DNA of 64,000 nucleotides. Source: Massalongia carnosa (Eukaryota). This document shows, piece by piece, positions 18,215 through 58,582 of this stretch (position 1 is its first letter; each line of letters starts with the position of its first letter). The stretch lies in the NCBI GenBank assembly GCA_965645245.1, contig OZ287069.1:186001-250000 (forward strand), given 5' to 3'. Under the pieces are notes generated by a model. The model saw nothing but the letters and a program-made list of their open reading frames with translations, was not told the DNA's origin and did not search any database. A program made the position numbers and the translations under genes.

Positions 18215-18530
18215 GGCGTGGAGTTCGAATAGCCGAGGAAGAAAGAAAAGCGCGCTAGTCCCAATGCGTCACTTAATTTTTGATTAAGTAACCGATTAGG
18301 CCTAGTGCGCCGTTCTGACGCTAAATCTAAAGTAGCTGCAGCTTGCATCCTTAGCGGCAGGCTTAGGGTTGGAACATCCACTAGTCCGCATTGGGAGTTT
18401 TTACCCAGTTTTGATATTGGGCAGGAGTTTCGGTTATCACGCAAGTTTGATTTATTTTCGGTTTCGCAAGCAAGAGATAGATAGGTAGTTTGTTCGGATT
18501 GATGGAGCATACAAGAGAAAGGGTGATAAG

Positions 18531-35498: not shown

Positions 35499-38400
35499 TT
35501 GTTAGCGATTCTCTCCAATTTGCCCCGTGATAGGAGGTCAGCGAGCTCATTTGACTTTGTTGGGATCCAACGTATTGCAATCCGAATATCATGAATAGCG
35601 GTCAGCATTGCGATTGCCCGAAGGGACCGCATAGCGTTTCCACGAATAGATGATTTCCTTATTCCTGACGTGACAGCAAAGTTGTCACAGTGGAAAATCA
35701 CATGGCTCCCTGCACAAAGAGGGAGCCATTTACGCAAAGCGTGTAATATCGCTGTCATTTCTTTGACATTGATGTGAGTTGGCCTAAGCCGAGACGTGAA
35801 ACGTTCAGAAAGTGCATGCTCAGCGGGCATGGTAAAACTGGTATGATCCTCCACTAGGATGTAGGCCCCAATGCCGTACCCTGATGCGTCCGTCCAAAGA
35901 CGAAATGTCTCGCGAGGACGTCTAACATGCGAATGCCATTCCATTTAGGTAAAAAAAGATGCCACCACTGCAGGTCGGCTTTGATATTCTCGTTAATATG
36001 AATATGACGCCCACGAGACATGGCTTTTGCGTTAAAAAGACGTCGGAGGAAAGCTCTCCCTGGCACTACCACTTTAGCTGCGAATGACAAAAATCCCACC
36101 AAGGAGTCTAATTCCTCCCTTCTAATCGATGATTTTTGCAAGGCCTGTTTGACGAGGTCTTTGGCTTTCTGCAGTTTGTCTGGTGGTAGCCGTGCTTCCA
36201 TGAGCACAGTATCCAATTCGATGCCTAAGAAATCGATCACATGACCAGTTTTATTTTTCTTTTCGTTGACTGCGATTCCAAAAGGTCTTTGCAAAGATCG
36301 AAGAAGTACTGAGTGAAAGCTTCCGCTTCGGGATTAGTGCGGCAAACTGCCAAGAAATCATCTACACTACCAGATCCGTGTCATATTACCCAACATTACA
36401 GCACGGGTCACCTTGGGTAATGATATGGGTAATAATTACCCAACTTTAATTTTAACGTCCAATATTACCCAACGTTACAGCACCGTCGCCTTGGGTAATG
36501 ATGTGGGTAATGGTTACCCAACTTTAAGTTTAACATCCCATATTACCCAACGTTACAGCACCATCACCTTGGGTAATGATTACCCAACTTTGAGTTTAAG
36601 TCAATAATATAGCCAGCTTATCTCCTCCTCTCCCTTACGAGAGGTTAGTAAGCAAACATTGACAAGCCAGAACGCGCTATTGTTTTGTTTGTTAATTTTC
36701 TTTTAATTTCCCACATCCTGTCTTGAAGAAAAAATTCTCCTTGCTTTCTCATCCTTCCATCTCTCGCAACCTCTTCCCTCTTCACAACCTCTTCTATCTT
36801 CCATCTCTTTCATCATTTGTTTTTTTCTTTACACTCAATCAACAATGGCTCCTCCCAATATTCATAAGCGAAAAGCAGTAAGATCTATTCCGACCAGGTC
36901 ATATCGTAATTGCCTACCGCATCAAAAACATCCGGCTCTCACCTGCTTGGTATCTACACTGGGAATTTGCGCCCATGCATGTCCCTGTCTCTTAGTCCGT
37001 ACAGACTATGCTTCTATGATATGATATAAATAATATTACATGTGGCCGGTGCAGATGCCAAGCAGGTGGTGTTTCTGATGCGGTAGGAAATCATAACATG
37101 ACCTAACGGTTTGTTCAGCCATTATCATATATTGATCTTTGAATATTTAGACTCATGCTGGCTTGAACAATCTAGAGCTTTCAAATACGGCACCTTCAAT
37201 GCGAAATGGAGACCCTTCGGCTTCTTTGGAGACCGGTACATCCGCATGGGGACCTAGCCCTGGCAAGAATCATTTCCATGTTGATATAAGTAATTTACCA
37301 TTCTAATTAAATTGTTAAAGGCACTTCTCTGGGTAATGCACCGTCATCGTCGTCTTCAAATAACCCGCATCCTCGATCAGCAACCAACTCTACGCGATTA
37401 CCGCTTGCTACACAAGGTCCTGTATCTACATCAGAGCAAGCCGCTATCTTTCGATCGATTCAACGGGAAGATCCTTTGGATCACGACCTCGTCGAAACTT
37501 TTATCAAGGTATGGCATGAACTTGTTCCCTCTCTTAATATGTAATCGCACCACGTTCAATGTTTCATGTTTTATTTAGAACATGCTTTTTAATGATACAT
37601 ATTAGAGTTCCACGGGGTACCAACTAGCATCTATATACAAGCTTCAGTTGCAAAATAGGAAGGAGATCACACGGATTAAAAAGGAAGCCAAATCTACAAA
37701 ATATGCCACAGAGCTACGGGCGGTTTGTGTAATCTTTCAGCATAATACCTGTGGCTCATGTTTGCAGATAATCAGACCCATAATACGCCGACGCTTAACT
37801 TTGGAACGATACAAAGAAAGCACATGGAGCGATCCCAAGCAAGTATTAGTACGTTATCATTAGGCTCGTTTGGTATTCCATAGCTAATACTATAGTTAAG
37901 ACCTCATTACGAGGTTATTTTCCTTCCGATCTAATACTTCCAGACAATGCTGTCGCTTTAGTGGGGAAAGTCCGCATAGAGGAAAAGGCTAAACTAAAGG
38001 AACGACTCCTCAAGTGTCAAGATGTTGTCGATAAACCTCTTGCGGATTTTGCCGAATGCCTAAGGTCAGAAGTGGACTCGGAGACCAAACATGTGGACAA
38101 TGACATGTCTTTGTGGGAAGCAGCAGCTTGTTGGGTAGGCTTCCCTTCATATTATTATCTTGCATCTTGTTTATTGCAAAAGCTAATATCAATGAATGAT
38201 AGAGATATGTTGTTCTTGAGCAGATGGAAAAGAAAGAAGGAAGTTTCTGGTTCCAGGTTGATAAGATTTTGATGAATATAGACGCAGACTGGTACGTCAA
38301 ACTGAATAACTCTTGTCTTTTCTGTGGTAGAGTTTCTTCATGAACTAATTTAAACAGGGACTTTTATACTCCTGACGTATTAGAGTATGGTCGTGCGTCT

Positions 38401-39671
38401 CTAAGTGACGGCTTAACTTTGGATCAAAATCCCACTCTCGATACTGCTTTAGATTCGAATAATACAACACCGCTGGCAGAGGATGAAGATAACGATAATT
38501 CTACCGAATAAGGCGAGTTGAGTTTTTCTAGGCTTGGAATTGATCCACTGGACGGTTGTTTCTTGATCGGTCGGACTGAGCTCAAAGAAAGGAAGGGGGG
38601 AAGGGCCGGGCAGACATAGACTGACTGTACAGGTTTTACATATGAAGATAATGTGATCTGGGTATCGTTGTCTATATGAGAAAGTCTAATCATTAGATAT
38701 CCTCGAGACAGATTAAATACAAGTTTTTTCTTCGATTTTGATTCAGGATGCAGATTTGGCGGCGGCGCCAGTGAGCCTGTAATATTGAGTCGCAAGCTCC
38801 AAACTAAGTTTTAATGCATCATGAGTCATCATTATACGTTAAATGATGTAATGGTTACCCGATTGTTGGGTAATGGTTACCCAATTATGCTCCTCATCAT
38901 TATGTAACGTTATCCCCTCATGGTGGTAAAACATTGATAGAAAACATTACCCAACGTTACATAATGATACAACCGTAACCATTAGGTAACGTTATGCAGA
39001 TATGGTAGTGTAGATAATGAAGCACATCATGTTGATTTTGTAAACACATCCAATTTATCCCCTTTGCAAACAAATCGAATAGAAAAGGAGAGGTGCGCAA
39101 GCCGAAAGGTAGAAAGCGCTCCATCCAGTACACTTTATCCCATTGAAATCCCAGCAGCCACCAGTCGCTTTTAGCCACGGGTATATGGCGAAAGGCATCG
39201 GAGAAATTCCTTTTTACTAATATGCACATTTTTCCTTGTTTTCTTATTTTGGCGACAGCGTCATCGAATGTGGGGTATTCCAAGGCCCCCCATTCCTGAG
39301 GGATGAATTCATTTACCGACGATCCTTCAGGATGAGATAAATGATGGATACGGCGCCATGTACCATTTGATTTGGGTACGAGACCTAATGGGGATGATAT
39401 GAACTTGGAGGGAAGAATATCTACTCGCGTCAATCGTCCCTTATCCCTCTGCTCCTCGACATCTTTAGTGAGTATATCAGGAAGCTTCTTTTGCTGATAG
39501 CAGATTGGGGCTGAGGATGAATTGTTCTGGGCCGGTATACCCAATCTTGGCCCCATACCGAATAATATCAAAAATAGCCTGCTTGTACACGTTATCGGGG
39601 TGAGTTTCTAGGTGCTTCTTCCAGCCGGTGAGGATGAGTGGTCCTTGCTGAAGAGCCTCGAGTTTGTCCAT
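35462..39671 (-). pseudogene. RT-RNase H of the YR retrotransposon, split at YL|DD by the CACTA insertion
   Basis: WRRIHHLS, DAFRHIPV, LPFGLRTSP, HYL|DDFL, FLGIELD, WTDASG, INVKE, HCDN, NELADLLSR. Confidence 0.9.
36365..39010. mobile_element. Non-autonomous CACTA/EnSpm element
   Basis: CACTACCA...TGGTAGTG termini; TA duplication; arrays of ATTACCCAA/TTGGGTAAT subterminal repeats at both ends. Confidence 0.9.
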
Positions 39672-39768
39672 CAGTCTGTACGGAAAACCTTCCGCGATAT
39701 GGTCATATGGGCTGGCTAGTCAATCCTTCCTATTGACCGGTGTCCAATTCGAATTGTTACGAGATTGG

Positions 39769-40796
39769 CTACTTTGGGTTGCTATTGTTGGGGGTGTTGC
39801 CCCTGCAACTAAGTGCTGGGTGCTGTCTCCCGCAGTTGCTGCAGACGTGTTGGTATCTGCAGTCTCGGCAGTCCTTGCCTGTGTTATACCGATGGCAAGG
39901 GTAGGGCCTTGGAGTATTGCTGTTTGAATTGGTTGTGTATCCCCCAAATCCGGTCCGGGTTTGAAGGTTGTTGAGGGGCCTGTCGCGTTTAACCAGGTAT
40001 GTGTTTTCCAAGTCTGGGTAGCTTTGCCTCCATTTTACGGGGTCGTCCACTCCTTGATACCACAGCGTTCTATGAAATACCATATGAACTTGCAGCAACG
40101 ACTCCCATGTGTAGGTATTGTGAAGCAAAATCAGCCGGTCCTCGTATTTCATGAAGGCCCTTGCTAGATCTTTGAATAGACTTGGTTGTGCAAAGTGCAA
40201 TACCGCTTGCCAGTATACCAAAAGACAACGAATTAGGTGGGTGATACCCTTGATGTCGCTCAACGATGCGTCATCCTCGCCAGTAATGACCTCCAGACCT
40301 TTGCTGATATTGATAAATTTCTTCGTAAACTTGCTCGGAGTAACGTCACTGCACATCTTGGCGATATTGATGGGGTCAAACTTATTTTCCAAAATTTGCT
40401 TGAAATACAGCTGGTTTATGGCCGGAAAGTCACTTGTCAGAGGAGGATTCTTGGGTCATCCGTACCTTCGCTCTGAAAGGCCTGATTTGTCTGTTGGGAT
40501 CCCCCATGCTGAAATCCCGTAGGGGCCTCCTCCACCTCCAACGCGGCCTGTCTGTCGACAATTTCCTTCCTAAGCTTTCTCATTTCGGCCTGGCGCCCCT
40601 CTCGTACCAAAATGTCGCGTTGTACGCGAAGTTCAAGTAGCTCATCAGGGGTACCGGGGCGTGTAGGCCCTTCTTCCGCTGGCTGGCCGGCCTGCATTGT
40701 TGCGGAGGTCGGCTGAGAGTCAGGCACAAGGGGAGTGAGGGGGCCAGTGGGGCCGCTATCGTCGGCGGTGGACGCAATGCGGCGGGTAGTAGGCAT
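39769..40796 (-). pseudogene. gag-like ORF1 of the YR retrotransposon (frameshifted)
   Basis: C-terminal CHRYN...CRDCRYQHVCSNCGRQHPALSC zinc-finger cluster. Confidence 0.75.
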
Positions 40797-41053
40797 TCTG
40801 TTTATGGAAGGGAGTGATGAATAGTAAAATTCACGTGTAGGTATAATAGCATAATTGTCATTAAAGGTGTGGATTATATGTGAGCTATCTACTTCATTAT
40901 ATAGCAGTCACATTGGAGACCTTTCGGCGACCCTTTTCATAAGGAGTCAGCCGGTCCACTGAATCTCGGTCCCCGGAGGTCACCTCGGTCCCCGTAGTAG
41001 AGTCGCCGAAGATAAGCACTAGATGAATGCCCTTGATGGTAGTTCTTACCATC

Positions 41054-41421
41054 TGACAGGGAGTAGAGCGGAGCTAGGTTTATACGTGTTTATCGAAGAT
41101 GAGGAAGGGAAGAAGGATGGATTGTTCGTTAGGTTGGAAGATTGTTGGATCGGACTCAAAAACTATTATGCAGTGCTACCTCCGAATCCGAGATGATGAG
41201 GAGATGTAGGACTGCTTTGGCCCTCTATATAGCCTCCATCTCCCCCCTGTCATCCATCCTTCCCTATCCGATCCCCCGTCGTTATCCGAACCAGCTCCTG
41301 GCGGATAACCGTGCAAAACCGAAGAGGTCCGGATTTTGCATCACCTGTTGTCCCCGTCATGCGTGGAGAACCGCTGGTAGCCGATCCGCTGGTAGCCGAA
41401 TCCGCTGGTAGCCGAATAGCA
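41054..41421 (-). repeat. Possible LTR with three tandem CCGCTGGTAGCCGA(A)T units
   Basis: TG...CA ends, TATA-like CTATATAG, tandem repeats at 41371-41417; no second copy in the window. Confidence 0.3.
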
Positions 41422-41463
41422 TCGGTCCCGCACTAGCTCTCGCCATAGACGAACTAGATAGCA

Positions 41464-41583
41464 TGTTGGAATACTCGCTTAGCCCCATTAGTTCTAGATC
41501 AGCCCTGCAGGCTGCTATAAGCAGTCACCGTAGTAATTTCAACATTATGCCGTCAACTGTTCATTTAACAGGTTATGAGTCCC
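41464..41583 (+). repeat. Short Copia 5' LTR (41464-41570) plus PBS
   Basis: TGTTG...TAACA followed by GGTTATGAGTCCC, the same PBS type as the Copia at 10425. Confidence 0.65.
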
Positions 41584-42080
41584 GGGTTTGTGCTTTGCGC
41601 CCCTCCGACGGCATCCTACATGCATAGACTACCTTAAGGGCGGTTGGGGGTATTCGGACATGGTCTTGAGATGGTCTCAAGATATTATCTACTAGAACGT
41701 TCTTGTCTTAGTCTATCTACATAGTGATTACGTCAGTCAAGAAAGCAAATAGTGTTCAGATATTTTGTTTTCAAGACAATCTCGTGACTTTGTTATATGT
41801 AAGATATCTTATGATGTGGAATGCATGTTTCTAATAACATCATCTCAGGACGATCTTCGTTTGAAGAATTTCATCAGATTAGCTCATGATTCTTTTGAAT
41901 CAGGAGTGCTTTGAAACAGTGTGATATTTGGTTGACAAGATTTCAAGTTTCAGTTTGTGTTAGAGCCAAGTGCAAGCAAAACATTTTCTTCGGTCAAGCT
42001 ATGAGAAGCTAAATAGGATTGCACCAACAACTTCAAGCAAAACATCTTTTCTTCATACCAGTACAAAAAAAGCAAAGCGT

Positions 42081-42963
42081 TCACGAGCTAAACTGATCCT
42101 CGTCTTCGTTCTCGGCCTCGGTGACCTCTATCTCATCCATGATGGTACCAAATTCCTCCTTCTCTGGTTTGTCTGATGATTCCTTTCTCAGACGTTTTGT
42201 CCGAGCTGGTTTCAATTTGAAATGGTGTGGCTTGATGTTTTGGTATTTCGCCATTTGGGGAAACGTATCATAGAACTCTAGCAGGGAGGTTCGATCTGTC
42301 CCTTCTGCTCTGGGGGCATCCAAGAACAACTTCGTCTTCACCGCTAAATTAAGAAAAAACACTTGTTTCATATCAGTATGTAAATATCATCAGTTCTCCC
42401 ATGCCTTGTCACGTACCTTTAATCCAATAGGGTCCTCGAGGCATTACGCCCTTTTTTGAAGACTCATGAAACATCAAATCTTTTGCAGCCCATGGAAAAA
42501 CAGTTTCAGCATCGTGAGGATCGTATTGCTGTGCAAAAGCTTTGAATAATCTGCTCGAGTCATGCTCGGATTTCCAGCAGCCCTAGGTTGTCTCTCCTCA
42601 TCGCAGACTTCACATAGTCCTAAAAAAATTCAGAAGTCGAGTATAAACGCTAATAGCAAGCTACATACTTCCATACAGGTCAGAGAGCGATGTTTCCACG
42701 TTGAAACGTTGGACTGCGCTTTGGTGAGTCCTTTCCTGAAATATATATCTTCGTCATCCACATTTTCCTTGATTGCAGTACGTGCGATATGCGCTATCTG
42801 ATCTGCGTCCAACTTGCCATAACGAAGCGCAAATGGCCGCAAAGTAGCCTCCAATCGCATCGCTATTATATTCCATTCCGACGTAATGGCGTGTCTTCTC
42901 CGCCTCTTTTTTGTTGATATTTCTGCCGCTATTGGCCCTGATTCTATCTCGGATTGTGTCATA
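42081..42963 (-). CDS. Unknown intron-containing protein divergent from the transposase (possibly degenerate)
   Basis: ORFs 42630-43127 and 42081-42371 with GT-AG introns between them; KKRRRR NLS-like motif; acidic C-terminus. Confidence 0.5.
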
Positions 42964-43359
42964 GGTTCAAGGACCACTTCATTTGAGGATGAGATATTAA
43001 TGATTGTATTTGTGATATTAGCATGAACGATAGTGCAATCGGAAGAAAGCCTGAAGAATGGTAATGTTCTGAAACAGTGTGCTAAAGCCCTAAGAACTAA
43101 AATATCAACGCACAAGCAGTTCTTCATGAGAATACCTCACCTGCGCACAGAATTGAACTCAGTCATAAGACACGATGCCTCGTCGTGTATTTCAGGATGA
43201 TGTGACGGAGAATATGATGATCGATGAAGGTCATGTTTTGAGGAAGAGAAGAAAGCCTAAATCATTGACACTACTTCAATCATCTCAGCAGTAAGCCTTC
43301 TTCATATCAGTCTGAATAAACCGGACCTTGATGAATTAAGTTTCCAGGGTCCTCCTCTT

Positions 43360-46300
43360 GTGGAAAAGGCATTGATTGTTTCAGCATCCACTGTTCAAAG
43401 CAGTGTCCCACAGGCCAACCCACAGCCTTTCAAAAGTCAACCGATAGACTTCCCCGATCATGAGTCTATGCAAGCCGGTTCTTCATATCAACACAATTCT
43501 GCACATATTCATGAGGAGCAAAAGCAGACTCAGAGCTCAGAACCAATAGCAATGACGCATAAGAAGAGAACCATAGAGAATCTAGATAAAATTCAATCAT
43601 CGTCTAATCAAGTTCCTGAACAACACGTTCAAGACAATTTCCCAGCCGATATAGAGACGGCATTCGATCAAAATAGTGATTATGAGCGGGAAACTGATGA
43701 AGAGTTTCAAAAGGTTAATACTCGACCTACTTCAATCGCTGATACATCGGCCTTTGCTGTCGGCTTAATTTCTTCAAATGCTATCATGACATTATCATCC
43801 AATCAACTCGCGGAATTTGATATAGAAAGCACAGACACCGCTGAGTCTTTCAACGAGTTTGCCCCTTCTGCTTCTGAAAGCACGATTGATGATGATATCC
43901 GGGTGCCCTCCCGCCCAGTACGAGGAGAAATATCGGATTTCTGCTTGGCTCTTGGTCTCTGGTGTGATAAAGAAGGCATCAAGCGACGCACCTATGATGG
44001 CCTGCTCGAAGTTTTGCAACTGTTAGACGTTCATGAAGTGCGAAATTTGCCAAAGCGACTATCAACTTTGCAGTCCTGGTGCCGTAAGCGCCTTCCCCTT
44101 CCATCCATTCAGAAGGCAGCGATATCAGTACGACGAGAAAAACAACCCACCGGAACACCAAGACCGGCTCAAGCGAACGTCTATTACTTTGATACTCGAA
44201 CTGTCATCAGTATCTTACTTTCAGCCACGACTCAACGAAACATTCATATCGGTATGGCAGAGATCGTTGATAGTCCTTCGGAATACTGGCACTCAAACAG
44301 TTGGGGTTCTTCTATTCGCACATGTTCCACTGATTTTGCGAGATTTCCCGATTCATCCCCTATTTTTCCCTCTGACATTGTGCAGTATCGCTGTGGCAAT
44401 GATAAATGTGGAATTATTCATGATAGTCACTGCGGACAGGTCATATTTTTTGGACGTGATCAAAGATCGCGATCTCTGACCCTAGGTTAAACTCTTGTCA
44501 GGGTTCGTCCTTTGATAAGTAGAAAGAACGTTGACGAATATTCAGTTCCAGTCACGTTTGACTGGCCCGAAGATCAGTTGCTTTTGATAGAAGACGCGGA
44601 TCAAGATGTCTTATCCGAGCATGTTCTAGCTCGCCGTTTCGATGTTGCAGTTTGTAGGGATGATCAGTTACGGTCTACAACGCCTGTCTTAATTCGTCAG
44701 ATATTCAACGTCACGCGAGGAGATCTTAGATCAATCAAACTTTCATCACCGATTCGAGCGGAATTAGAAATGGAGGTCTTTGGTCGAGAGTACCTAATCT
44801 CACAGCTAATTAAAGGAGTTCAGTCATATCCTCTAGTCATTTTCATCGACGATTTCGGGTTATATCGAAACATGTATCGTTCCATCACAGGTGTTTATGC
44901 CATGCCAGCAGGCTTGCCCGCCTCGGAACGTCAAAAGAGTTTTAATGCTTACACCATTGCTCTTGGCCCGCACGGATCCGAGTTTAACGATGTGATGAAC
45001 TGTCTTCATATCAGTTTGGGAAACATGGATCGTGGTTGCATTCTTGAAATCAATGGACAGAAACAAGCGGCTTGGGCCCCGATTCTAGCATATCTTGGTG
45101 ATATGAAGCAGCAGCAAGCCTCCGGAGGGTTTCTTGGGCCTCGTGCCAACTATTGTTGTCGCTTTTGTGATGCGGGCCTTCATAATCGAGGAGATTTGCA
45201 GCGGGATATTCTACTTCATGGTCGTTATCATCATGAGGTGTTGGCTATACGAAAAAAAAGCCTAGCAATAAAAGGAAAGACAAAGAGACTGGCATATCTT
45301 ACACGAAATGGGCTCAAATCCGAATCTTCTACGCTTCAGACATTAACCCCGGCGCTTGATCTTATCATGAGTTGTCCACCGGATCCGGCTCATAGCGAGT
45401 ATTACGGACTGGTACGAAGATTGTACCCTCTTCTTTACACGAAAATACTCACGAAACGGGCTGCTGAAGAGTTTACAGCTGCCTTGCACTGTTTCCCGTT
45501 TCCACCTGGCTGGGGTCGAATACAGTCTCCGGCAATACATATGGCCTCATGGAGTATGAGCGAATGCGCTCGTGCCTCAGTCGTAATACCTCTACTTCTT
45601 CGCTGTTGGTTAAGAAACCATCATGAACGAAAGCCTTTTCGAAATGGATTAAAAATCCAGTTTCCTAAAGAATGTCGCCATTGCGCTTCAGATGAAGATT
45701 TGATAGTGTTTTGCTTTGGGAAACTCGCATGGAGTAACACGTTAATCTCGTCTTTTGAGTTATCCCTTAAAGATCGTCAAGAATTTCACAGTCAAATCAT
45801 CAATGCTCGACAATATTTTTTAGGTCTGATGAATGCAGCACAAAATCCAAAAGGACAAGGAAAGAAGAAAGACAACGAGAAAAGTGATTTTGTTACTGAA
45901 GAGTTGTCTTCCAGTTCTAGACGAGCATCGATTTCTGAAACATCCATAAACTTCCTTGATGGTGACACGGACACTCCATTTGAAGAGGCGTCCGTTGATA
46001 ATCTTGCATCAGATACCAACATGGGACTTTCTGCATCAATGACTGCTCGGAATGGCGAGGCCAATAAGCTGCCAAACTTTCATATCGGTATGCATTTCGA
46101 AAGAGTCATGCAGGAGTATGGTGTTCTGTGGAACGTTAATGTACTCTTTGGAGAAGACAAACATCGCTTTTTTAAGCAAGCAGTATTGTCAACAAATCAT
46201 CGAAAGCCAGAGCGACAGCTTTTAGTGAAAGCCGCTATCCTCTTCACTATTGTCGCTCTTTTGAATGGCTCGTTTCGTCATACCGATCTGGAGATCACTC

Positions 46301-46995
46301 TGCAAATGATTCGTTTGAAGCGGAACTGCCCGGCTCTTCTTGAGAGTCTATTATTCCACGGGGATCGCTCACAAACAGACGATCAAGAGTCGACAAATAC
46401 TTGTCTATTAGAATCTCCCTCATATCTAAAACCTACAGTGCGGGGAAAGCTCAAACCTTCCTATGCACAAAATCAAGGTCTTCCTATCAGAATAACCAAC
46501 TCTACAGAGCTCCGATTTAGGCAACTGATGCAGACTGCTATGATCGAGTATGGCCTTAACTGCGTCCAATGGGGAAACAAGCCTTTGTACTGGTATGAAC
46601 AATGCTCCTTTACTGTCAGGTCAACCGGCAAACGTTTCTCATTGCATATTGGCGACTTTCTTCGAATCCGCTCTGGCACATATGCTCAGCTTCGACAAAT
46701 TTATACTCACTGTCTACCATTTGAGGATATTCAGCGAGTGTTCCTTTGGATTCGACTGCTAGAGACCGCTTCCTATAAAGACGAGGTCCTAAATTTAAGC
46801 ATCTTTCAACTGACAAACACGGATAGAATAATCCCGTTATTCTTTGTTGATCCAGATAAGATCTACATTGTTCCTATCAATCGTACACTCAATGAGCCAG
46901 TATCATCACATACTATGCCGACCATAAGTTCAAGCAGTAACAAAGAATCAGACATGGATTTGTTACATTGTACATGGGGAATCAACTTTTTATAA
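43360..46995 (+). pseudogene. CACTA/CMC-like DDE transposase (~1200 aa), one in-frame TAA at 44488
   Basis: ORFs 43360 and 44512 share a frame; FIDDFG, YLGDMKQQ, CCRFC, PDPAH and GEDKH motifs. Confidence 0.72.
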
Positions 46996-47337
46996 GAAAA
47001 ATCATCATGACGACTGAACTGATGTCGCGTGAATTTAGGACAACACTTTCGCTACTAGCCTCAAACATCGTGTTGATCTTCATTTCACTTCATCTACCCT
47101 TTTTCATCTTTACCTTTTCATCCATCTTTACCTTTTTTCTCATCTTTATCTTTCTTCCCATCCGTCATTGATTTGTTCTTTCAATCCTACTGCTCATTCC
47201 TTCTTAATCTTAGTACTACTATCGATCTCTTCTCGATCATCAGTTCTTAAACTGGTATGATCGTCTGACTTGATTTTGAGATACAACCTCATCTCACATT
47301 GCATTATCACAGATTTCAGCCTCTACTTATCCACATC

Positions 47338-50300
47338 ATGGAAGAAAATGTATATGCCTCATAATATCTTCATCTAAAGCTTTTAACTTACCTTTTTTCA
47401 GGCGATCCCGATCACGCCTAGAAAAACGAGGAGAGCGGTAAAGAAGGATATAGATAAAATGATGACAAATGAGAACTTGGACACTCATGCCAAGTTTTTC
47501 AAGAATGAACAAAAGACAGCCGCTTATTTAGGATACAGCGATGTCGCCGAATATAGGAAGTTTCGGTTCAGTAGTGTTGTACTGGAATGGTATATTCCAT
47601 ATTATCAAAAACTGCCAACAGAGAAGTGTCAAAACTCCTCTGGCGCTTCTTCGAGATCTTCCTGACCTGTCAGATGCTTTTCCAGTTGACTTAGGTCAGC
47701 TTCTTTCAAAATATCCTATTACAGATCAGGATGATAGGGCCAACAGGCGTCAAAACAGTGATAGCAGGGACTATCTATATGCCGCCATACTTTTTCGACT
47801 CGCAGAAGCCATTGATGAGGTTTCGTCTACTAGATTTTATGATGTTGAAAGACACAGAGCGGCTTCAAATCGATTTGAAAAAATTATAAGTTTGAACATA
47901 CCAAATATCAAGATTCCCGCGTTCAACGACACTGTCATACAGTATCCTAAACTGGGTCCCTTGCAAAATTTCAAAGAAGACGAGTTAGAAAGGTATAGCC
48001 GAACCAACTCAATTTTGAAGTCTCTGCAATGTGTCCTCGCGCCAACAAAGTAGAGGGAAACATTCGTCAATGCAAAAAGTTCACCATACGCATCCACTTT
48101 GATCTCTGCTGACATGATACCCTCTTGGATGCGGCCTGAGGAGCCGCAAGATGATCTTTCTATTACTATTGCTTCTGTCGAGCCAACCGAATTGATACGA
48201 AAATCCTTCATATTGTATCTGAATCGTCAGCAGAAGACCAAATTCAGTTCAAAGCTTGACAAGCATTTTCAAGAGTTTATCGTGTTCAATGGTTTACGCC
48301 TTCCCGAGAGCAATGTGCAAGTAGAGCGAGATCCACGTGCATATCCAATGGGTGAGATGTGGCGAGATACTCTGCGCCGACAGCTTCACTTTGAACAGCT
48401 TCGTGTAGACTTCTTGACAATGAGTCTTACTGTAAGAAATACAGTCATACCGATACGAGAGTTGTTGATCTACGACCTAAATCACCCCTCTACTGCAGCT
48501 TCCTGGTCGGAGGTCCAGGAATTTCTTGCCAAAAAGGATGTGGACGAGTTCATATTCTCTTATAATCTGCATGTCATTGAGGAACATGAAGACTTTGACT
48601 ATGAGCATGACGGACCACTCTTGGCAATTCTGAAAGACATTCAGGTGACGGAAGACAACGATGTAGCTGTGAGATCTGTGATCGATCCAGTGAGCACTCG
48701 ATCTATTGATGAAGCTTTCGAGAAGATGTCACAAACTTCACAAGCGCTCGAGGACACTATGCTAATGGCTAATGCAAAATGACACGGAAAACATGGACCC
48801 TAGCTTAATGGAAGGATCCTATTCGCCGTCTTTGCACAATAAACTGCGGCAATTTTTGTCTGATGGATCCACGATTGCTCGAAAAAAATCCATTCCGCAG
48901 TTATATTTTGACTCAACGCAACGCTCGGAAATGCTTCTATATCATGAAAACTTTGATGTTTTTACCGAAGAAGGTCTGCTACGCTGGCAACATCATGTAC
49001 TGGACAAAGTCTGCGGTCAGATGCCGAAGGCTTTGAAGGATAATAGTATCTTGAAGCTTAATAAAAAGGTGCGAGAAGAGCTACAACAAGCTCAAACTGA
49101 TAGCGAGACTGCGCTTCTCTCAGCTGAGGTATTTATTCAATCTCATATCAGTTTGAAGTTGTCTCTAACATGTCTTGAAAAGCCCGATTCCGTTCATGAT
49201 CTCAAACGATATTTCGACATTCAAAACGCCTTTACAGGCAGCGCATCACAGACCGGTCCACCTATTGCTATCTGCAAGATAATACTCGGCATGAAGTTCA
49301 TTTCGAAGCACGGTCAAGCACAGCTGCTTGACAGAAGTTTTTGTACCCTCATCGGAGACTGCAAAGTCTCCTTTCTTGACAGTCAGATAAATGGAGCAGT
49401 TTTCATGCTACAGCGATCATGTGGGAGAATACCTATCGACTCGGAACGCGTCAATGATCCCGAACTGGCCAAGGCAGCAAAAAAACTAGAGAGTATTCAA
49501 ACATTTGGTGGAATAGTTGTTGACACAATGGGGTTTGGAAAAACCTATACAGCATTACTTTTTCTGGCGTATTACGCGCGATGCATGACAGAGAGAGACG
49601 TGAACATCATAGCTGCGCATCGACCGGCACTCTGCATTGCTCCGAGTGGAATTGTCTTGCATCAATGGCAAGAAGAAATTATACAGTTCCCAACCCTTAC
49701 ACTAATAATCGCACATGGAGACAGACCCATTAACGCTAAATTTGCTCTCAATTGGGTTTCAGCAACAGCAATGCGTGAAGCTCCCAGAAAGCTGACGAAT
49801 TGACCTCCTCATTTGCGGTACATTTTTGATCAAAGCAATCCAACCGCTTCACAGGTCGTAATACTTTCGTCTTACGATACTTTTGCGAGCCGAACTCTTT
49901 CTGTACATACGAAATTGAGCAAAAGTGGAAGAGAAAAGAAAACCTTTAATTCTAAATGGACAGGAGTATTTGGACCAGTTCTTTTAGACGAGGGCCACAA
50001 ATTGCGACATCCTGGCACCAAGATCTTTGCCAGTATCAAGCAGCTCGAGGCTGAGGTACACTGGTTTTTGACCGCTACACCCGTCATCAACGATTCATTG
50101 GTAATGTTTTCATATTGATATGAAAAGGGCTGATGATCTCTAACGAGTCTGTTAGGACATACTCGGACCTTTATTAATCTTATGGCCACGGGTAAAACAA
50201 GACATATTGATGAATCCGACTTCGAGTGAATGGCTGATGCAGCACGCGGCGGAGTCCTATCATAGCTTTGAAGCGATTCAGTCGTTGTCCGAAACGGATT

Positions 50301-52424
50301 CTAAACGACGTATCGTCATGGATCCTAAGAGGCATGCACAATCGAATCTCGACCTCTTTTTCGTCATTTATTAACTGTCATACAGAATCGAAGCTTTGTT
50401 GCTCACTCAAGATGTGCAGCTTATTGCAAAACATTATCACTACATGGACGAGCTGATAATGATTCGCCGCTCCACTGCCTCCATCCTGAAGATCAATGAT
50501 CATGAAACTGTTTCTATGCGCTCCATGATCCCAAGCCACGAAGTTAGAACCGTTGAGCTCACTTATCAAGAAGAAGAAGCAGCGGAGTCCCAATGGGTAC
50601 ATAGAGCTCACGCTCGGTTAACTTATTCTTCATATCGATATGAATCTGAGAAGCAAATAAAAGCTAATGTATGGATGCAGGGAATTTGTTCAAGCCATAA
50701 AAGATTGGAAGGGCAAGAAGAGGGAGAAGCCATAAATTACAGCTATCAAGAAAGCTGGAGCCGATAATTTCCCACACATCATAGCACCATTACGACATTT
50801 AACTCTCGCCAGTGCCTCCCTTCTTCTCAGTAGACTCGACCGCATGCTTCGATAAATAGGCCATAACACCTTGGTCAACGATATCAACCGATTTCGAGCA
50901 AAAGGCGTGACTGCTCATCATATCATTAATCTTGTGAAACGAGAAGTAGACTCTGATGTTACTACTGGTTCGGAAAAACTCAAATTTCTGACCTACGGTT
51001 CTCCCACCATGAAGTCCATACTATATCAAATTCATACTTATGTATTACCTCATATCGTTACGGACAAGCCACGGAAGCTATTGATTACAGAAGATGTACC
51101 ACTCAACGCCTTTTTCTGGGATAGCGTGTGTAATTTTGCATACGTGGAGACCGAAGTGTTACACGCTGGATTGACGGATTTAGAGCGCGTGAATCTTGTT
51201 AAAAGATTCAGCGATCCTAAAGATTCCTTACTGATTATGATAATAATGTATCAGGTGTCGGCACAAGGAGTAAATCTGGATAGATGTTGTTGTCGGGTTT
51301 TAGTGGCAACGCCAGCAATCAATGCACCGTCAGAAATTCAAGCTTGGTCTCGAGTAATCCGGGTATGTTATCTGAAAAGAGCGTGACCTTTCTTCGTACC
51401 GATACGAAAGTCTAATCGTTGCAGTTTCATGCAGGTTTCTCAAACCGAACCCGTGTTGGTTGTTCGAGTTGTAACAAAGAATTCTCATGATCAATATCGA
51501 GACTCCAAGCAAACAGACAAGGCCGTGGTGGACTTAGCCACTCGATCCTTCTCGTCAGAGGTGCAGAACCTACTAGTTGACTTGTTAAATGAGTCAAACA
51601 AATACGTAAAAGAGGCACACGAGAGTCAGAGAGGACACGAGATTCTGAAGGAAAAGAATTTTCTTCCCACAGAGGATTCAAATAACTCGATGAATGTCGA
51701 GTTTGACGAGGAGACCGGCGGTAGATTAGCTATCACGGTGCAATATCCATTGGATCTTGATCTCGATACAGTCACGAATCCTACACCCCGAAAACGTCTG
51801 AGACCTGACAGATTCGCGGATACAATGCTGCAAGATGATGTTTATCAAGAGTACGGTCAAGGTAAGCGCCGTAAATTGAAGGGCAAAGCATCCATGAATG
51901 AAGATGTGGACGAAGACTTTTCAGATCAGTTTGAGGAAGACTCGTCATTTAAGGACAGTGAGAACAAAGAGGAGAACGATGACGAGGAATCCGAGGTGAC
52001 ATCGGATGATAGTGATGATGCTTTTCAAAGTGATGGAGACGGAGATGAGATAACTGCCTTGAAAGATATTGTTTTGGAGACGACAACGACCAAGAACTTG
52101 AGACAAAATTACAGCAAACTAACTTCCATCGAGCAGGAGCAATACAATCAAGATGAAATGAACTTACGATACTTGTTGAGCTTGTCACCGACAAGAATCT
52201 ACACTCTCGAGGACTTGGACGACATCGAAGTACTTGATCGAGCGTTGAGGCTGCTCTTTCATGCTCGGTTCGGTCAAGCTCAGCAATATATGAGGATTAG
52301 TCCTCACGTCACTTACGATAAATTACCAAGCAAAGTGTCGAATGCCATCAAAGCTAAATTACGGGTGGAGGAACAACATGTCAAGCAATGTTTGAGCATA
52401 CTCAATGCTGCTGGAGTTTTGTAA
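47338..52424 (+). pseudogene. Large multi-exon gene with a SNF2-family (SF2) ATPase/helicase core and acidic C-terminal region; stops and frameshifts present
   Basis: GGIVVDTMGFGKT, IAP..VLHQWQEEI, LSSY, LLDEGH, LTATP, SAQGVNL, QAWSRVIR|VSQ..PV.V.R. Confidence 0.85.
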
Positions 52425-54139
52425 GAGTTCTTCCCATTCTGCTGACGATGATGATGCAACTACAGCTAACAGACGATAGAGAACCTAGAGTCATGCCAAA
52501 GCAGGCTTTATTGGAGAAGGCCGTTTCCGAGAAGGACGCCTCCGAGAAGGACGCCCCCGAGAAGGCAGTCTTAGAAGTCTCCTCTGGAATCTCCTCAGGC
52601 GAGAAGGGTTTGTCAGGTCAGAACAGCTGGGTTTTGCTGACACTCTCCATCATAAATTTGGTGATTGATCTCTCGCATTCAAACTTGTATGAAAGGACCG
52701 AGACTAATTTATTTGTTGCGTTAGGCTACCCTATCTTCTACATAGGCACTTGGTACGTTATGTTCTCTGTGCATATTGCAATTCAAGCTAACAGTCTTAT
52801 TCTTCAGATCCTCAAGGCACGTCTCTTGTCTGCCTTGTTTCATCAGTTTCATACATGTTGTGAGAGGAGGTACGGGAAGGACTTGATGGAGTGATTCAAG
52901 ACTAGATCGTGCGAGACAGCAACGAGAACGAGAAACATGGCATGAGGATGATAGCATTCATAGAGCTGTAGATTAGAAGCTGTCACTAAATCAATAACTT
53001 GTTTCTCTAACCATCAACTGGGCGAATACATCATGTGAACCCGAATACAACTCAGCTGTAACGAGGTTGCATGAACGTGATATCTCTTTTATAAGATTGT
53101 TTTCTGATCGTTTTATCCGGAACACGATCTTGAAGGTCTTGAGATCTTGTCAAAACTGAGACAATCTCCAAATGATTGCCAGATGCTTTTTTACTGCAAG
53201 CACTGTTCATACCAATATGAATGTTCACTAAGATATATCCTTTTCAAGACTATAATATTTTCAAAATGATTTCAGACTCTATATTATCCGCAGATATTTC
53301 TCATCAGACACAAGCAGAATTTTAAGCTATCTTACACGTGCAGGACAATGTTGAGTCATCTCAATCAGGAAAGCGCTCAAAAAAACATTCAAACCGGGAA
53401 CCTGCCGGTGTACCCATTTTAGCGAAGACATGTCCGGGATCTTGAGACCATTCCATGACCATGTCCGAAAACCCCCAACCGCCCTTAAGGTACGTACTAT
53501 CATGTCGTATCAAGAAGATGATGAGGTGAAAGTTCAGACGTGGAAAGCGCGAAAACGAAGCGGAAATGACATCGAAAGGGATGAGAAACGAAGCGGAAAC
53601 AAAGCGGAAACGTCATCGAAAGTGGTGTACGTACGAAACGTGCTGAGGAGGACATCTACAACGGGCGGTGCCTCGAAGACTTCACATCTTGCATTACTGG
53701 TCAGATCAGCAAGGGGAGATAAAAGCCCTGCGATCAGGCCACCAACGTCAATGGTTTGCGGGAAAATGTCTAACAGAGACATCGAGAAAAGCCCTGCTCA
53801 GGTCATCAATAAAACACGTCCATAGTACTCTTCCCATCCACCCATACACTCACAAAAGCTACGTTTCGAGAGATGGTTATGGGTTTAATGAGGCTACAAA
53901 GCAGGAAAACAAAACGAGAAGACTCGGGACAGCCCCCCCCCCCCACCGTCCCCCCAGCAAAAATAATTCCAAATTAGGACTAGCTACAAGCCACCCCCCA
54001 TACTAAATAATTAGGTGCATATACCTCGTTCACCGTCTCTATTAATAATATTATAGGTATAGGCAGCCAACCCTCTGTATATATTTATCACTATGATAGG
54101 TAGACCGCACTTCTTCTCTCCCTTATCTTTTTCTTTGCT

Positions 54140-56581
54140 ATGGCCCTCACATCAACGTCCCTGGATGCACGTTTGCAAAGGGCTATAGCGAGTTTAACGT
54201 CGTCTCATCGACTTCCTCCGAGTGAGAGTGAAATCTTTATCTCCTGGGAGGAGGGAAAAACCCACCTTCAGAATTATGCCTTTACTCAAGGCTTTGCATT
54301 GGTCACAGAGACTAATGATAAGAAGAATCATCTCGTTATACTAGATTGCACCCGTCATCACAAAAGAGAAAGAAACACTAGAAAGCTAGAGGAGAAGGAC
54401 CGCGTACGAAAAAAAACGAAGGTCTCGTTCAACGAGTGCAAATATCGACTAAGACTGAAGCAAAATAAAGACGAATCGTGGAGATTAATCATCACCAATC
54501 CTGATCACAATCACGAGATGGCTACAGACCCCTTCGGTTTCAAAGAGCATCGTAGCCAAGACCTCGATCGAGCAACTGCCCTAGATCAAGCAAAAAGTCT
54601 CCGTGATGCATCAACTAGATACGGTCAAGCATCTCGCGTTTTGGGAATGACTGGCCTGCGCCTTTCGAAGAAGGACTATTACAACCTGGCTCGATCCCAG
54701 GGCAAACATACACCTGAAGAAGAGTTGACCTATGCACTTGGATTTCTAGAAGAAGAAGGGTTTCATGTACGGACTTTGGAGAAATATCTCGTTGAAAACA
54801 ATACTCCCCGAAGACGTGTTGTTGAACATTTCTTTTTCTGTAACGCTGAACAGATCCGACTGACGATGCTACGTTCAATACAAATCAGTTGAACTTACCT
54901 CTATCGGTGTTGGTTGGCATCACCAACACAAATCAGACTTTCCCCGCGGCCTATTGTTATATAACTTCTGAATCGGCTGAGTGCTTTACGTTTCTATTTG
55001 ATTGTATGAAAGATCTCTTTTTTCATGATACATATCCTGGTCCTAGGGTCATCCTCGGAGACTTCGCCGCTGGATTGACTGCAGTGATGCATAAAAAACG
55101 GGCTAAGGAAATAAACCCGGATGCAGCAATGACCGTTGCATGGCAAGTCGCCCAATCAATACACGAAACCGACCCTGATTGTGTGTTGCAATTATGCACG
55201 TGGCACGCAGCGGAGGCAATCAAGAAATGCCTGATCAGGGCAGGTTCATATCCTTTAGAAGTACGGAAAGAGCTGCATGAATTGATATGGGAGTGGATCA
55301 AAACTCCTACCGTTGAACAGCTGGATGAGAAGAGAAACGCGTTGATATTGAAGCTTCATGTTTCAGAAAGGTATGAAGCCATCAAAAAACGTTAATAAGG
55401 GCTAACTCACTCCTATTTCCAGGAGTATTTTACTAGCTATTATCAACGTCAGGAGTGTCAGTTTTTTTCCGCATACACCAGAAAGTATCCTAATTTAGGT
55501 GCACATAGCACACAAAGGGTGGAAGGTTTGCATCCGTTGGTAAAGAATGTGACAAATAGGCATACACCTATTAAGGACTCGGTGCGGAAAATATGCGAAA
55601 CAGTGCAAAGGGTTCAGGTTGACTACGAAATATCAACCAATCATCAACGAATCAACAACCCCCGGCTTATGGATAGAGGTGCGTTCAAAGACCTTATAGG
55701 GTTAATAACTCATCATGCTATTGACCTCATATCTAGAGAGTTGGATGTAGCTAAACTTTTCGCCGAAGATTTCAATCAACAGGTTTCTTTTGGAGTTGAA
55801 GGGACTGCATTAATCGAACCAACCGGTGAGGATTGTATGTATGATTGTGATTTGCCTACACGATACGGTCTTCCGTGTAGATGCTGGTTGTATCGCTGCG
55901 TCATTTAATGTTATCCCCATACCTATCTTCCTCATTCATCCCCGCTGGTTTTTCGATGGCCCGCCTTTTGTGGTCTCGTGGAGCATGGTTTTCGACCCCA
56001 CCATAAAGTTCGCTGAGATGTTTCGGAGAGCAGCTCACAGGAAGACCACAGAAGAGCAGGATGAGGAGGCGGATGAGGGGGGGAATGCTCAACAAAGTCA
56101 AGAATCTGAGCCGGAAGAGGAGATCGAGAAGGCAGTTGACAATAATACTGGAGATAGATTTCGTCGCGGGGGTGTTGATTTGCTGCATGCGGCCGCACAT
56201 CAATCTATTGATTTTCATAAATCAATAGAAAATATGCATAGAAGGGAGGGGTACGCTCGTGAATTCGCCAAATTCACTGCTATTTTCAATAAAAAATAGC
56301 AGGATAAGGAGCTGGCGAGGCCACTTATCCCTACAACTTTCCCCGACGAAATCCGACCGAAGGACAACCTTATGTATAAAAAGAGTGGGAGTCGCCGGCA
56401 GGCTTACACTGGCCGTGAGGCAGCTGAGACAGATGAAGCTAAGCAGCGACGTGCTAAACGTAAGGACTCGATTGAAGAAGGGAGGAGAAGAAGGCATGAG
56501 GATGAATTGTGGGCAGGCGGTGAAGACAAGGGTATGATTGATGATAAAAAACCCACGATATTAGCAAATCGATCGATGTAG
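54140..56581 (+). pseudogene. Degenerate MULE (FAR1-like) transposase, right end lost
   Basis: YAFTQGF...C...HNH FAR1-like domain; DATFNTN; ILGDF; QLCTWH; STQRVEG; CDLPTRYGLPCRC. Confidence 0.85.
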
Positions 56582-56715: not shown

Positions 56716-58582
56716 CACCATTGCCCACCTTGAGGACGCCGTGAACGGCTTACGCCTCATTGATGGCGACTCAGCTCCCACGTGGAAGGAGTGCGAAGAC
56801 TGCATCAAGACGAAGATGAACGAACATGTTGCGAATTTCCTAAGTTGCCGCATTTTCTTGAATTCCCGCATAACTATTTTTAGCTAAGCTCAATTGGGTA
56901 ATCGCAAAATATTTAACGAGTTCGATTTCTAATGTGGCGGGATGAGATTTCAAATCACTCTTTTACGGCATGATAAACCGCGAGAAGATGAATAAGCTAT
57001 TATAGCTATTTTGACATACATGGCGACAATGGCCTCATCAGATTATCAATCCTTTCGGCTTCGTACATTCGAAAGTTGCGAAGTTCGGTCAGCAAAGCCG
57101 AATAGGGGTAATATTCTTTAGGTATAATAAGGCGTTGATTTCTCATGTATTTTATCTATTCAGTCGTTATCAGGTAGCTATTCGGTATAATAAATATTCA
57201 GCTATTCAGCACTTATTCTTGTACCCTTATCGTCCCAGACAACCTGCCTCCCATTATCCAGGCGCGTTTCAACAGAACAGATCTCTCGCCGCCCACCAGA
57301 GCACCCAGCTACAAGACCGTTTGAGCGAATTGCTATCGACATCGTTCAGCTTATCCCCACGGGCCAATCCTGCTACAACGGCGACAAATATCTCCTTCAT
57401 GCAGTCTGTCAGTTCTCCGAGTGGCACGAAGGAGAAACTCTCCCATCCCGCGGAGAGGAGGTGATAGTCCCTACAGTCTATCGGATCATCGAGAAGATTC
57501 AGCGTCAATTTGGCTACAAGTATGTTGTACTCGTAGTTCGATCTGACAACGAACGCGGATGGACCAAAGGCCATGTGAGATCTCTCAGAGATGTTGGTAT
57601 GAAGGTCGAACGCACCCCAGCGGACACCGATGAGCCCAAAGGCCTCCAAGAGTCTGCTGGCAAATCGATCATGACGCGTACTCGCGCCCTTCGAATCGCC
57701 TCAGGTCTCCCGCAGGACCTCGTCAACGAGCTCACGATTACGGCCATCCAACTGCTCAACACCACGCCCACTTGCTCCAACCAATGGCGCACGCCGTATG
57801 AGGTCATCTATGGCTACAAACTTACGATATCTCACTACGCTCCCATCGGCTGCCGAGCGTACATGCTCAATCGCGACCTCAACGCAGCCGACAAAACGTC
57901 CTCTCGAGTCCACATTGGCTACCTTCTTGGCTACGATTCGACAAAAATCTTTCGTGTTTGGATCCCTCATAGCCGACGCGTCATTCGCACCCGAGATGTT
58001 ATCTTCAAGCATGATCTCATGTACAAAGACGATCTTGAGCACAAGCTACACGCTCCCAAGGTTGCTGAAGAAGAAATCGAAGTACTTGACCTCACCATGC
58101 CTGAGGAACAAGTCACTGCCGACGACCTCTATACGCCTGAGCAAACGCTTCGTTACACTCAAGAGCTTTCCCTGGCCATAGAATCATCTGATCAGCCATC
58201 AACTCCGCCTACTCGAGTAACCAACACGAATAAGTCGCCTCAGCAGATGCAGCTCCTTACTCCTGACACTTCTCGTATGGGTACAGCAAGCCCTTCTCAG
58301 CTACCTGAAGATTCCATTCTTAGCGAACTCAGCGAGGCTCTGGCTTCGCCCACACCAGAGGAAGATGATCAAACTCTCCTCGATCAACAGCTGTTCAACG
58401 ACCAGCAAGTACTGGAACAACCATCCCGTCCGAGTAGAGTTACGTACCAGCCACCCACTCAACCTCGCAATCCTCGACACAACAGGGCCCCGCGTGCTCA
58501 AGAGATCTCTGGTGGTGGTAACTTCGTACTTGAACGACGTACTCGCTCCGGTGCAAGTCCCTCGCAGCCACTTGATCGATAA
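56716..58582 (+). pseudogene. Copia fragment (GAG-pre-integrase and integrase), split by a solo LTR
   Basis: CEDCIKTK...PFERIAID, VRSDNE, HIGYLLGYDS...FRVW...TRDVIF. Confidence 0.8.
56827..57274. repeat. Solo LTR (448 bp)
   Basis: TGTTG...CAACA termini; TSD GAACA at 56822-56826 and 57275-57279; removal restores the MNEQISRRP reading frame. Confidence 0.9.

Follow-up and report, generated by a model that had tools for sequence, protein, structure and literature searches.

We describe an 11,859-bp DNA transposon (positions 41632–53490) in a 64,000-nt stretch of the genome of Massalongia carnosa (assembly GCA_965645245.1, contig OZ287069.1, positions 186,001–250,000 of the forward strand; the whole stretch is hereafter termed the window). 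Taken together, the evidence makes it probable that the element is a recently decayed, non-autonomous copy of a TA-targeting, RAG1-like transposon of Pezizomycotina, and that it belongs to a lineage that carries an SNF2 ATPase as an accessory gene. A previous reading of the DNA, made from the letters alone (the sequence-only reading), had proposed here an autonomous transposon bounded by terminal inverted repeats (TIRs) that pairs a CACTA/CMC-like transposase with an SNF2 ATPase.

The TIRs of the element are 52 bp long and differ at four positions (92.3% identity). The left TIR occupies 41632–41683 on the plus strand and has the terminus CCTTAAGGGCGGTTGGGGGT; the right TIR occupies 53439–53490 on the minus strand. 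Counted with the flanking TA, the inverted pair found by the repeat search of the window (41630–41683 and 53439–53492) comprises 54 nt at 93% identity. The terminal 20-mer of the TIR has only two sites in the window, one at each end of the element, with none expected from 100 shuffles. The termini of the element are CCTTAAGGG...CCCTTAAGG with a TA outside each end; written with their flanks, the ends read TA-CCTTAAGGGCGG...CCGCCCTTAAGG-TA. The TIRs with four mismatches, the non-CACTA ends and the TA flanks had all been noticed in the sequence-only reading, and both the repeat search and the sequence confirm them. The same is true of its claim that the subterminal regions are rich in TCAAGA/TCTTGA: the density of the motif is 10 per kb in the outer 2 x 400 bp (eight occurrences; the left subterminal region is 41632–42031), as against 1.8 per kb in the 11,059 bp between them (20 occurrences) and 1.14 per kb over the whole window. 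Judged by this motif density, the subterminal repeats are candidate transposase-binding sites.

The insertion is directly visible in public sequencing data. Five public runs, labelled as lichen metagenome or as one of two coded organisms, share about 0.6 of the sampled words of the region 37500–46500; the runs listed comprise no RNA data set. Logan contigs of four runs (X1–X4) were aligned to the region 38500–56500. Contigs of X1, X3 and X4 join position 41629 straight to 53491, skipping 11,861 bases, and contigs of X2 have loose ends in agreement with this joint. The skipped bases correspond to the 11,859-bp element and one TA, hence the TA target was duplicated (41630–41631 on the left and 53491–53492 on the right). 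At the joint, the letters TAC can be assigned to either side, and TA rather than TAC is assigned as the duplication because the TIRs are symmetric. The element is a discrete insertion with a 2-bp TA target-site duplication, and the exact empty site with a single TA in three runs gives substance to the earlier proposal of a mobile TIR element.

Internal-deletion derivatives are usual for DNA transposons, and two such forms are present in the Logan contigs. The first joins 47508 to 50564 with a GCCA filler and is found in all four runs; the second joins 42100 to 53041 and is found in X4. The runs also contain many contigs that are 90–99% alike. The flanks of the element (40300–41631 and 53491–56300) have a summed contig depth about 2–6 times that of the element in each of the four runs, and coding sequence for a FAR1/AFT DNA-binding domain and a Mutator-like element (MULE) transposase is present in the right flank (54104–55392). 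Given the flank depth and the MULE coding sequence, the simplest account of the empty sites is that they represent further copies of a Mutator-like element; the transposon is thus most simply seen as nested within this more abundant element. Within the 64-kb window itself, neither the element nor its flanks were found a second time.

The transposase is encoded on the plus strand at 43261–46995, in one frame of about 1,243 codons that is interrupted by a TAA codon at 44488–44490 (tblastn and open reading frame (ORF) map). The first in-frame ATG, as read from the translation, is near 43465. Three full-length homologues that are 50–54% identical by tblastn (P0002, P0003 and P0004) align over 43504–46992 in a single frame, which indicates an intronless gene. 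A word-based search yielded 44 homologues of the transposase, all of them fungal where the source is named (Chaenotheca, Pleopsidium, Morchella, Coccidioides, Zymoseptoria, Lasiodiplodia and Thermomyces), and Lasallia pustulata is present in the cluster of P0002. The 90%-identity cluster of the transposase from the window has 27 members, the 15 listed ones being spread over 10 contigs.

The catalytic core (44809–46140, plus strand) has a RAG1-like organization, in which an RNase H fold with D120, D204, C223xxC226, H..H247 and E303 is followed by a helical domain (residue numbers are those of the 834-aa ORF). In alignments of 16 and 42 sequences, D120, D204, C223xxC226, H247 (within HGRYHH), D298, H301 and E303 are invariant or nearly so. 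This D..D..C(2)C..H(3-4)H..E layout is the one by which the CMCT (CACTA-Mirage-Chapaev-Transib) clade is defined in the accessible text of Kojima 2025 (PMC12730594). The AlphaFold model of residues 1–550 of the 834-aa ORF has a predicted local distance difference test score (pLDDT) of 84.6 and a predicted template modelling score (pTM) of 0.83, and places D120 on a strand, D204 just past a strand and E303 on a helix. A small beta-barrel that is weakly BAH-like in the model is predicted directly ahead of the core (44491–44748, plus strand). Structure prediction had been proposed as a check by the sequence-only reading. With the model obtained, all 44 PDB chains matched by Foldseek at E <= 1e-3 are RAG1 or the amphioxus RAG1-like protein (BbRAGL), the best having an E-value of 4.2e-6. 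The model matches RAG1/RAGL first, then the P element transposase and Transib.

From its motifs and modelled fold, the transposase is predicted to be a RAG1/Transib-like DDE enzyme of the CMCT clade. The element has the DDE/CxxC/HH layout, the RAG1/Transib-related core and a target duplication within the 2–5 bp range of this clade (2 bp), and it lacks the 5'-CA..TG-3' termini that the clade has 'in most cases', the termini here being CCTTAAGG..CCTTAAGG. The CMC-like assignment made from the sequence alone therefore stands in the sense of a CMCT-clade, RAG1-like enzyme with a TA target, but not in the sense of CACTA proper. Plavaka (PF18759) is the nearest Pfam family to the transposase, although its gathering score is not reached: four of 11 homologues score 23.2–25.3 bits, under the cut-off of 26.3, over a span that covers D2-CxxC-H-E. 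The sub-threshold stretch maps to residues 176–309 of the 834-aa ORF.

Downstream of the transposase is a 5.1-kb gene for an SNF2-family ATPase (47338–52424, plus strand), which was delineated by Pfam and by tblastn with P0047, P0049, P0056 and P0065. The N-lobe of the ATPase (PF00176; 49384–50094, plus strand) retains Walker A (GFGKT) and motif II (DEGH) in the translation of this copy, and the SNF2 pieces of the window reach 32.6 and 35.4 bits, the cut-off being 24.9. The C-lobe (Helicase_C; 51141–51365, plus strand) is sub-threshold in this copy (20.3 bits, cut-off 23.5) and exceeds the same cut-off in the homologues P0056 (27.4 bits), P0110 (28.1) and P0103 (23.7). Four full-length homologues (1,499–2,330 aa) lay out five SNF2 segments in differing frames by tblastn. 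Splice signals define three canonical short fungal introns, at 49129–49182 (54 nt, in frame), 50101–50155 (55 nt) and 51363–51434 (72 nt). A fourth intron (47350–47401) probably follows a first exon of four codons that begins with ATG at 47338; with this start, the gap between the transposase stop and the SNF2 gene would be 342 bp. A TGA codon at 51384, which was considered as a nonsense codon, was rejected as it lies inside the 72-nt intron.

A family-specific domain of about 550 aa is located N-terminally to the ATPase. A word search with an SNF2 piece returned a single protein, and an HMMER scan was required to find the relatives. The profile of the N-terminal domain has 724 matches at E <= 1e-3 and 122 at E <= 1e-30 in a library of 1.84 billion proteins. 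Most of the 150 listed matches are short fragments. A few of those listed are full-length SNF2 relatives from Pseudogymnoascus, Diplodia seriata and metagenome-assembled genomes (MAGs) of lichen fungi, and one Pseudogymnoascus strain has two diverged full-length paralogues. The gene looks like a resident of mobile DNA. In the 90% cluster of P0052, which represents the N-terminal domain, nine members are each exactly 586 aa long and come from separate metagenome contigs of 3.4–381 kb. Many ORF-called relatives of this domain stop at profile position ~546, which corresponds to the intron 49129–49182 of the window; the shared end suggests a conserved intron rather than a separate gene. When compared with PDB, the homologue P0049 matches Rad5 (1.7e-13), the archaeal Sso Rad54-like protein (9.1e-13), the SMARCA-type remodeler chain 9jao_C (1.3e-11) and Swr1 (5.8e-10). 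As a separate observation, the 2,330-aa homologue P0047 from a Blastenia crenularia MAG has an OTT_1508-like deaminase domain (PF14441, residues 321–391, E 1.3e-8) ahead of the SNF2 part. This could be either a fusion of neighbouring genes in the gene model or a real architecture; tblastn detected no counterpart of this deaminase domain in the window.

Point mutations, most of them transitions, have disabled the copy in the window since its insertion into the Mutator-like element. At the position of the transposase TAA codon at 44488, five sibling proteins of the 90% cluster have Q, which identifies it as a private CAA-to-TAA change. The SNF2 gene has an extra base at 47607, where the frame is continuous in five sibling proteins; this base is left out at full depth in Logan contigs of X1–X3 and at part of the depth in X4. 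It also has a TAG codon at 48051 (W in three siblings and in P0045), a TGA codon at 49801 (W in P0045) and two frame changes without splice signals, one near 48780 and the other at 50705–50762. With these nonsense codons and frameshifts this copy is not autonomous, and the earlier description of it as such has to be abandoned. In their sequence context, the changes at 44488 (CAA to TAA) and at 48051 (TGG to TAG) individually resemble repeat-induced point mutation (RIP), whereas that at 49801 does not. Bulk RIP of the element was considered and rejected, since its TA/AT ratio of 0.62 and its (CA+TG)/(AC+GT) ratio of 1.34 are not RIP-like.

Because the SNF2 gene is enclosed by the TIRs, it is moved along with the element. 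Elsewhere in the same genome, fragments of both the transposase and the SNF2 gene are found on contigs of 2,104,751 and 1,685,442 bp; the third shared contig (1,303,322 bp) is that of the window itself, P0216 and P0199 being its ORFs. The cluster of the SNF2 N-terminal domain from this genome has six members on six contigs. Outside the genome, contig records were cross-matched for 27 SNF2-family proteins, four transposase proteins and nine listed rows against the list of 44 transposase proteins. Only two shared records emerged, of 12,345 and 176,331 bp; with a transposase list of that small size, the non-matches are of little informative value. The 12,345-bp ENA contig is recorded for both P0002, the closest full-length transposase (56% identical), and P0050, a 572-aa SNF2 N-terminal-domain protein. 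Other proteins of the family are recorded on contigs of similar, element-sized length (11,893, 12,150, 12,267 and 12,308 bp), the 12,267-bp contig being that of Lasallia pustulata SLM34489.1. In Pseudogymnoascus destructans, a single gene model on a scaffold of 19,018 bp (P0123, ELR07181.1) fuses parts of both proteins: residues 1–185 match the C-terminal part of the transposase homologues (residues 61–165 are 56% identical to the window), and residues 298–933 are the SNF2 N-terminal domain, after which PF00176 follows.

A scan of metagenomes provided 58 loci with more distant transposases, 25–50% identical to that of the window. At least 6 kb of downstream sequence is available for 11 of them, or for nine if the near-duplicates L011/L013 and L032/L052 are each counted once. 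Two of the loci, both from one metagenome sample, contain TIR-bounded elements of about 9 kb (L053:294–9733 and L047:3665–12750). The former has 51-nt TIRs with TA on both sides and the latter has TA/TG at its TIRs; the TIRs of the two have the common motif ATAACAAAAAG[CT]GGGGT. Their accessory ORFs, which span about 5.5 kb upstream of the transposase, match no Pfam family. At a further locus, a transposase of the family is followed downstream by a 1-kb unit that resembles a miniature inverted-repeat transposable element and has inverted repeats of 55 nt (98%) (L022:9371–10411); its arms hold TTTTAGGGGGTGGGCCGAATAG-like units that are faintly similar to the TIR of the window (TTAAGGGCGGTTGGGGGTATTCGG).

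In a quick maximum-likelihood tree of 70 transposases (the duplicates L013, P0204 and P0202 were left out), the window, its siblings, P0002–P0007, P0009 and P0020 form one clade (SH-aLRT 100). Our reading of the sequence comparisons is that one lineage of the family gained the SNF2 gene and has retained it while its transposases diverged to an identity of about 55%; the lineage includes at least lichen fungi of the Lecanoromycetes type and one Leotiomycete. Co-occurrence of transposase and SNF2 genes at other loci, a check proposed in the sequence-only reading, is seen for the siblings, the 12,345-bp contig and the P. destructans fusion, but not for the distant loci: SNF2 was detected in none of the 58, either by tblastn (E <= 1e-4) or with two profile hidden Markov models (E <= 1e-3).

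This absence is one of several points that weigh against our interpretation of the element. The TIR-bounded relatives L053 and L047 also have no SNF2 gene. Absence from distant relatives makes the gene lineage-specific, and the transposase evidently works without it. The linkage through shared contigs comes from matching contig records and is indirect. The 176,331-bp record links P0011 with the SNF2 protein P0053, while in the tree P0011 is sister to L011, whose flanks are without SNF2; this match is therefore doubtful and may be mere co-residence on a contig. An SNF2 gene with introns next to a transposase without them is the pattern expected of a captured host gene. For the class of the transposase, the Foldseek TM-scores of the RAG1/RAGL matches are low (0.22–0.36), a profile search of PDB sequences with the transposase alignment gave no matches, and the ORFs of the window have no Pfam Plavaka match at E <= 0.1. 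A clue to the function of the SNF2 protein is likewise missing from two comparisons: its N-terminal domain has no informative fold match, and no named SNF2 subfamily (Rad5/16, Rad54, Swr1, Fun30, DDM1 and others) emerges as a clear best match for the ATPase, no stretch passing alone in the comparison of P0049 with PDB. Finally, the longest sibling ORF on record is 827 aa, so that no intact copy is recorded for the species.

Part of this evidence would suit a rival explanation, in which the SNF2 gene is a passenger, i.e. a host gene that was captured by one lineage and has no role in transposition, or is of only indirect benefit to the element. We consider this possible, though on balance doubtful. 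Capture of gene fragments is known from CACTA and Pack-MULE elements. Passive capture of TET/JBP genes is moreover described as frequent, in many fungal transposon lineages, in the accessible text of Kojima 2025 (PMC12730594). A passenger would fit the absence of SNF2 from the 58 distant loci, including the 11 with long downstream flanks, and from L053 and L047, as well as the contrast between a transposase without introns and an SNF2 gene with four or more inferred ones. It agrees less well with a linkage that persists at about 55% transposase identity between Lecanoromycetes-type lichen fungi and a Leotiomycete, with the full length of the SNF2 gene and its retained ATPase motifs, or with the 724 relatives of its N-terminal domain, most of the 150 listed being fragments as in decayed repeats. 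The gene also has no close relative among the solved SNF2 enzymes.

Another explanation assumes two nested or adjacent elements, a transposase-only element and a separate SNF2-bearing one that landed beside it. The distant transposases without SNF2 and the setting of the window, in which MULE, copia, gypsy and DDE_1 transposons are piled up, are compatible with such an arrangement. Nevertheless, we regard it as very improbable: the repeat search detected no second TIR pair around the SNF2 gene, the empty-site joint removes all 11,859 bp together, the order and strand of the two genes are the same in the fused model of P. destructans, other proteins of the family are found on contigs of about 12 kb, and the SNF2 gene, by its inferred start, would begin only 342 bp after the stop of the transposase. 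That the locus is host DNA, a syntenic single-copy cluster with a chance inverted repeat, as the sequence-only reading had allowed for, has practically no chance of being correct in view of the exact empty site, the deletion derivatives, the many contigs 90–99% alike, the 27-member transposase cluster on at least 10 contigs, and a TIR 20-mer without chance matches in 100 shuffles.

Under the preferred interpretation of a single transposon with an SNF2 accessory gene, the transposase would bind the TIRs and the subterminal TCAAGA repeats, excise the element and integrate it at TA by a cut-and-paste mechanism. The SNF2 protein would be an accessory factor of long standing and not a passenger by chance. 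Most likely, its ATP-driven DNA translocation would serve to loosen chromatin or to rearrange complexes of protein and DNA at the donor or target site, or else to promote repair of the gap left by excision. We further speculate on a 'chromatin-equipped' transposon, in which the RAG1-like transposase with its BAH-like module as a histone reader would cooperate with an element-encoded SNF2 remodeler whose 550-aa N-terminal domain matches no known fold and whose lineage is mainly or only a transposon gene, and would so let the element move out of and into silenced, repeat-rich chromatin; the present copy lies in another transposon. This extended scenario is unlikely to be correct as a whole. If true, it would make the element a fungal counterpart of transposons with anti-silencing enzymes such as TET/JBP.

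The element contains a third gene. Upstream of the transposase and divergent from it, two ORFs in the same frame on the minus strand (42630–43136, 168 aa, and 42081–42386, 101 aa) constitute a small gene at 42081–43136. The gene content recognized in the sequence-only reading (a divergent small gene, a transposase ORF and an SNF2 gene) agrees with our ORF map. The ORFs of the small gene match no Pfam family at its cut-off, and a search of the ESM Atlas with the small ORF was uninformative. In L032 and L052, two weak collinear tblastx matches are found upstream of the transposase and in divergent orientation to it; as the two loci share 97% identity, the matches count as one support. We infer that the small gene may encode a second protein of the transposon family.

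The remainder of the window is also rich in mobile elements (MULE, copia, gypsy, DDE_1 and reverse transcriptase (RT) sequences). The domain scan identified a copia-type polyprotein on the minus strand (5903–9893) and also a MULE transposase (498–2111), a gypsy-type pol (18489–20927), a pogo/DDE_1 transposase (26033–26794), RT fragments (38960–39607) and a copia integrase (57194–58579).

Few cut-and-paste transposons bring their own motor protein, and the searchable literature contains no description of one with an SNF2 ATPase. The family is a concrete study system, given its exact ends, its TA duplication, the derivatives with internal deletions and the relatives that occur in several ascomycete classes. 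It raises the question of what use an SNF2 remodeler could be to a RAG1-like transposase, be it access to donor or target chromatin, turnover of the transpososome or gap repair, and the same question bears on how RAG-type recombinases handle chromatin. For annotators of lichen-fungus genomes, it provides a repeat family whose members would otherwise be called scattered 'hypothetical' or 'SNF2 N-terminal domain' proteins.

Among known systems, RAG1, ProtoRAG (BbRAGL) and Transib have only 9–11% sequence identity with the transposase of the window, in whose family, unlike in RAG1 and Transib, the CxxC and the His pair are about 20 residues apart. No RAG2-like partner is evident in the element. 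EnSpm/CACTA proper is excluded by its CACTA (CAC..GTG) termini and 3-bp duplication, neither of which is present here.

To our knowledge, Enton and Inton, which the sequence-only reading mentioned as names of SNF2-carrying fungal elements, are not among the Repbase superfamilies. One sentence in the accessible text of Bao & Jurka 2013 (PMC3627910), citing Kapitonov et al., names them as eukaryotic DNA transposons with an SNF2 helicase possibly involved in transposition. Our element likewise encodes an SNF2 protein; in the searched literature the two occur as transposon names only in PMC3627910, and the comparison is confined to the SNF2 helicase. Helicase-carrying TIR elements are represented by Academ with its RecQ (accessible text of PMC3627910), which follows the same principle of a DDE element with its own superfamily 2 (SF2) motor but differs in the superfamily of its transposase and in the family of its helicase. 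In the accessible literature, no account of an SNF2-carrying element of the CMC type was found.

The CMCT clade, as listed in the accessible text of PMC12730594, comprises EnSpm/CACTA, Mirage, Chapaev, Transib, Plavaka, ESTA as well as Lanisha. Plavaka elements, described as PlavakaA and PlavakaB by Kojima 2025 (PMC12730594) and as giant elements of red algae (bioRxiv 10.1101/2025.02.11.637652), likewise have a 2-bp duplication and may be large elements with accessory genes, as far as the accessible texts describe them. Their termini are TGT..ACA (A) or CATCA..TGATG (B) in the accessible text of PMC12730594 and differ from those of the window, and the accessory genes reported there and in the accessible bioRxiv text are TET/JBP or PAG1–3 (SET/methylase, ParB/2OG-like), not SNF2.

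Judged by its description in the accessible text of PMC12730594, ESTA, a group of EnSpm-like elements, is the closest described kind. Its accessory gene is a TET/JBP dioxygenase and not SNF2, a term that occurs 0 times in that text. The ESTA entries of its supplement, as far as accessible, start with CAC, most of them with CACCAC, and thereby differ from the terminus CCTTAAGGG of our element. The ESTA hosts given there are rust fungi (Pucciniales, Basidiomycota), whereas the family described here belongs to Pezizomycotina. On the other hand, the TA duplication is common to ESTA and our element, RAG1 is the nearest solved relative of both transposases (by HHpred for ESTA and by fold search for the window), and both are multi-gene fungal elements of 7–14 kb with a chromatin- or epigenome-related accessory gene, again on the accessible description of ESTA. 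The family of the M. carnosa element would thus extend the range of TA-targeting CMCT transposons, hitherto described from rust fungi as ESTA, to Pezizomycotina.

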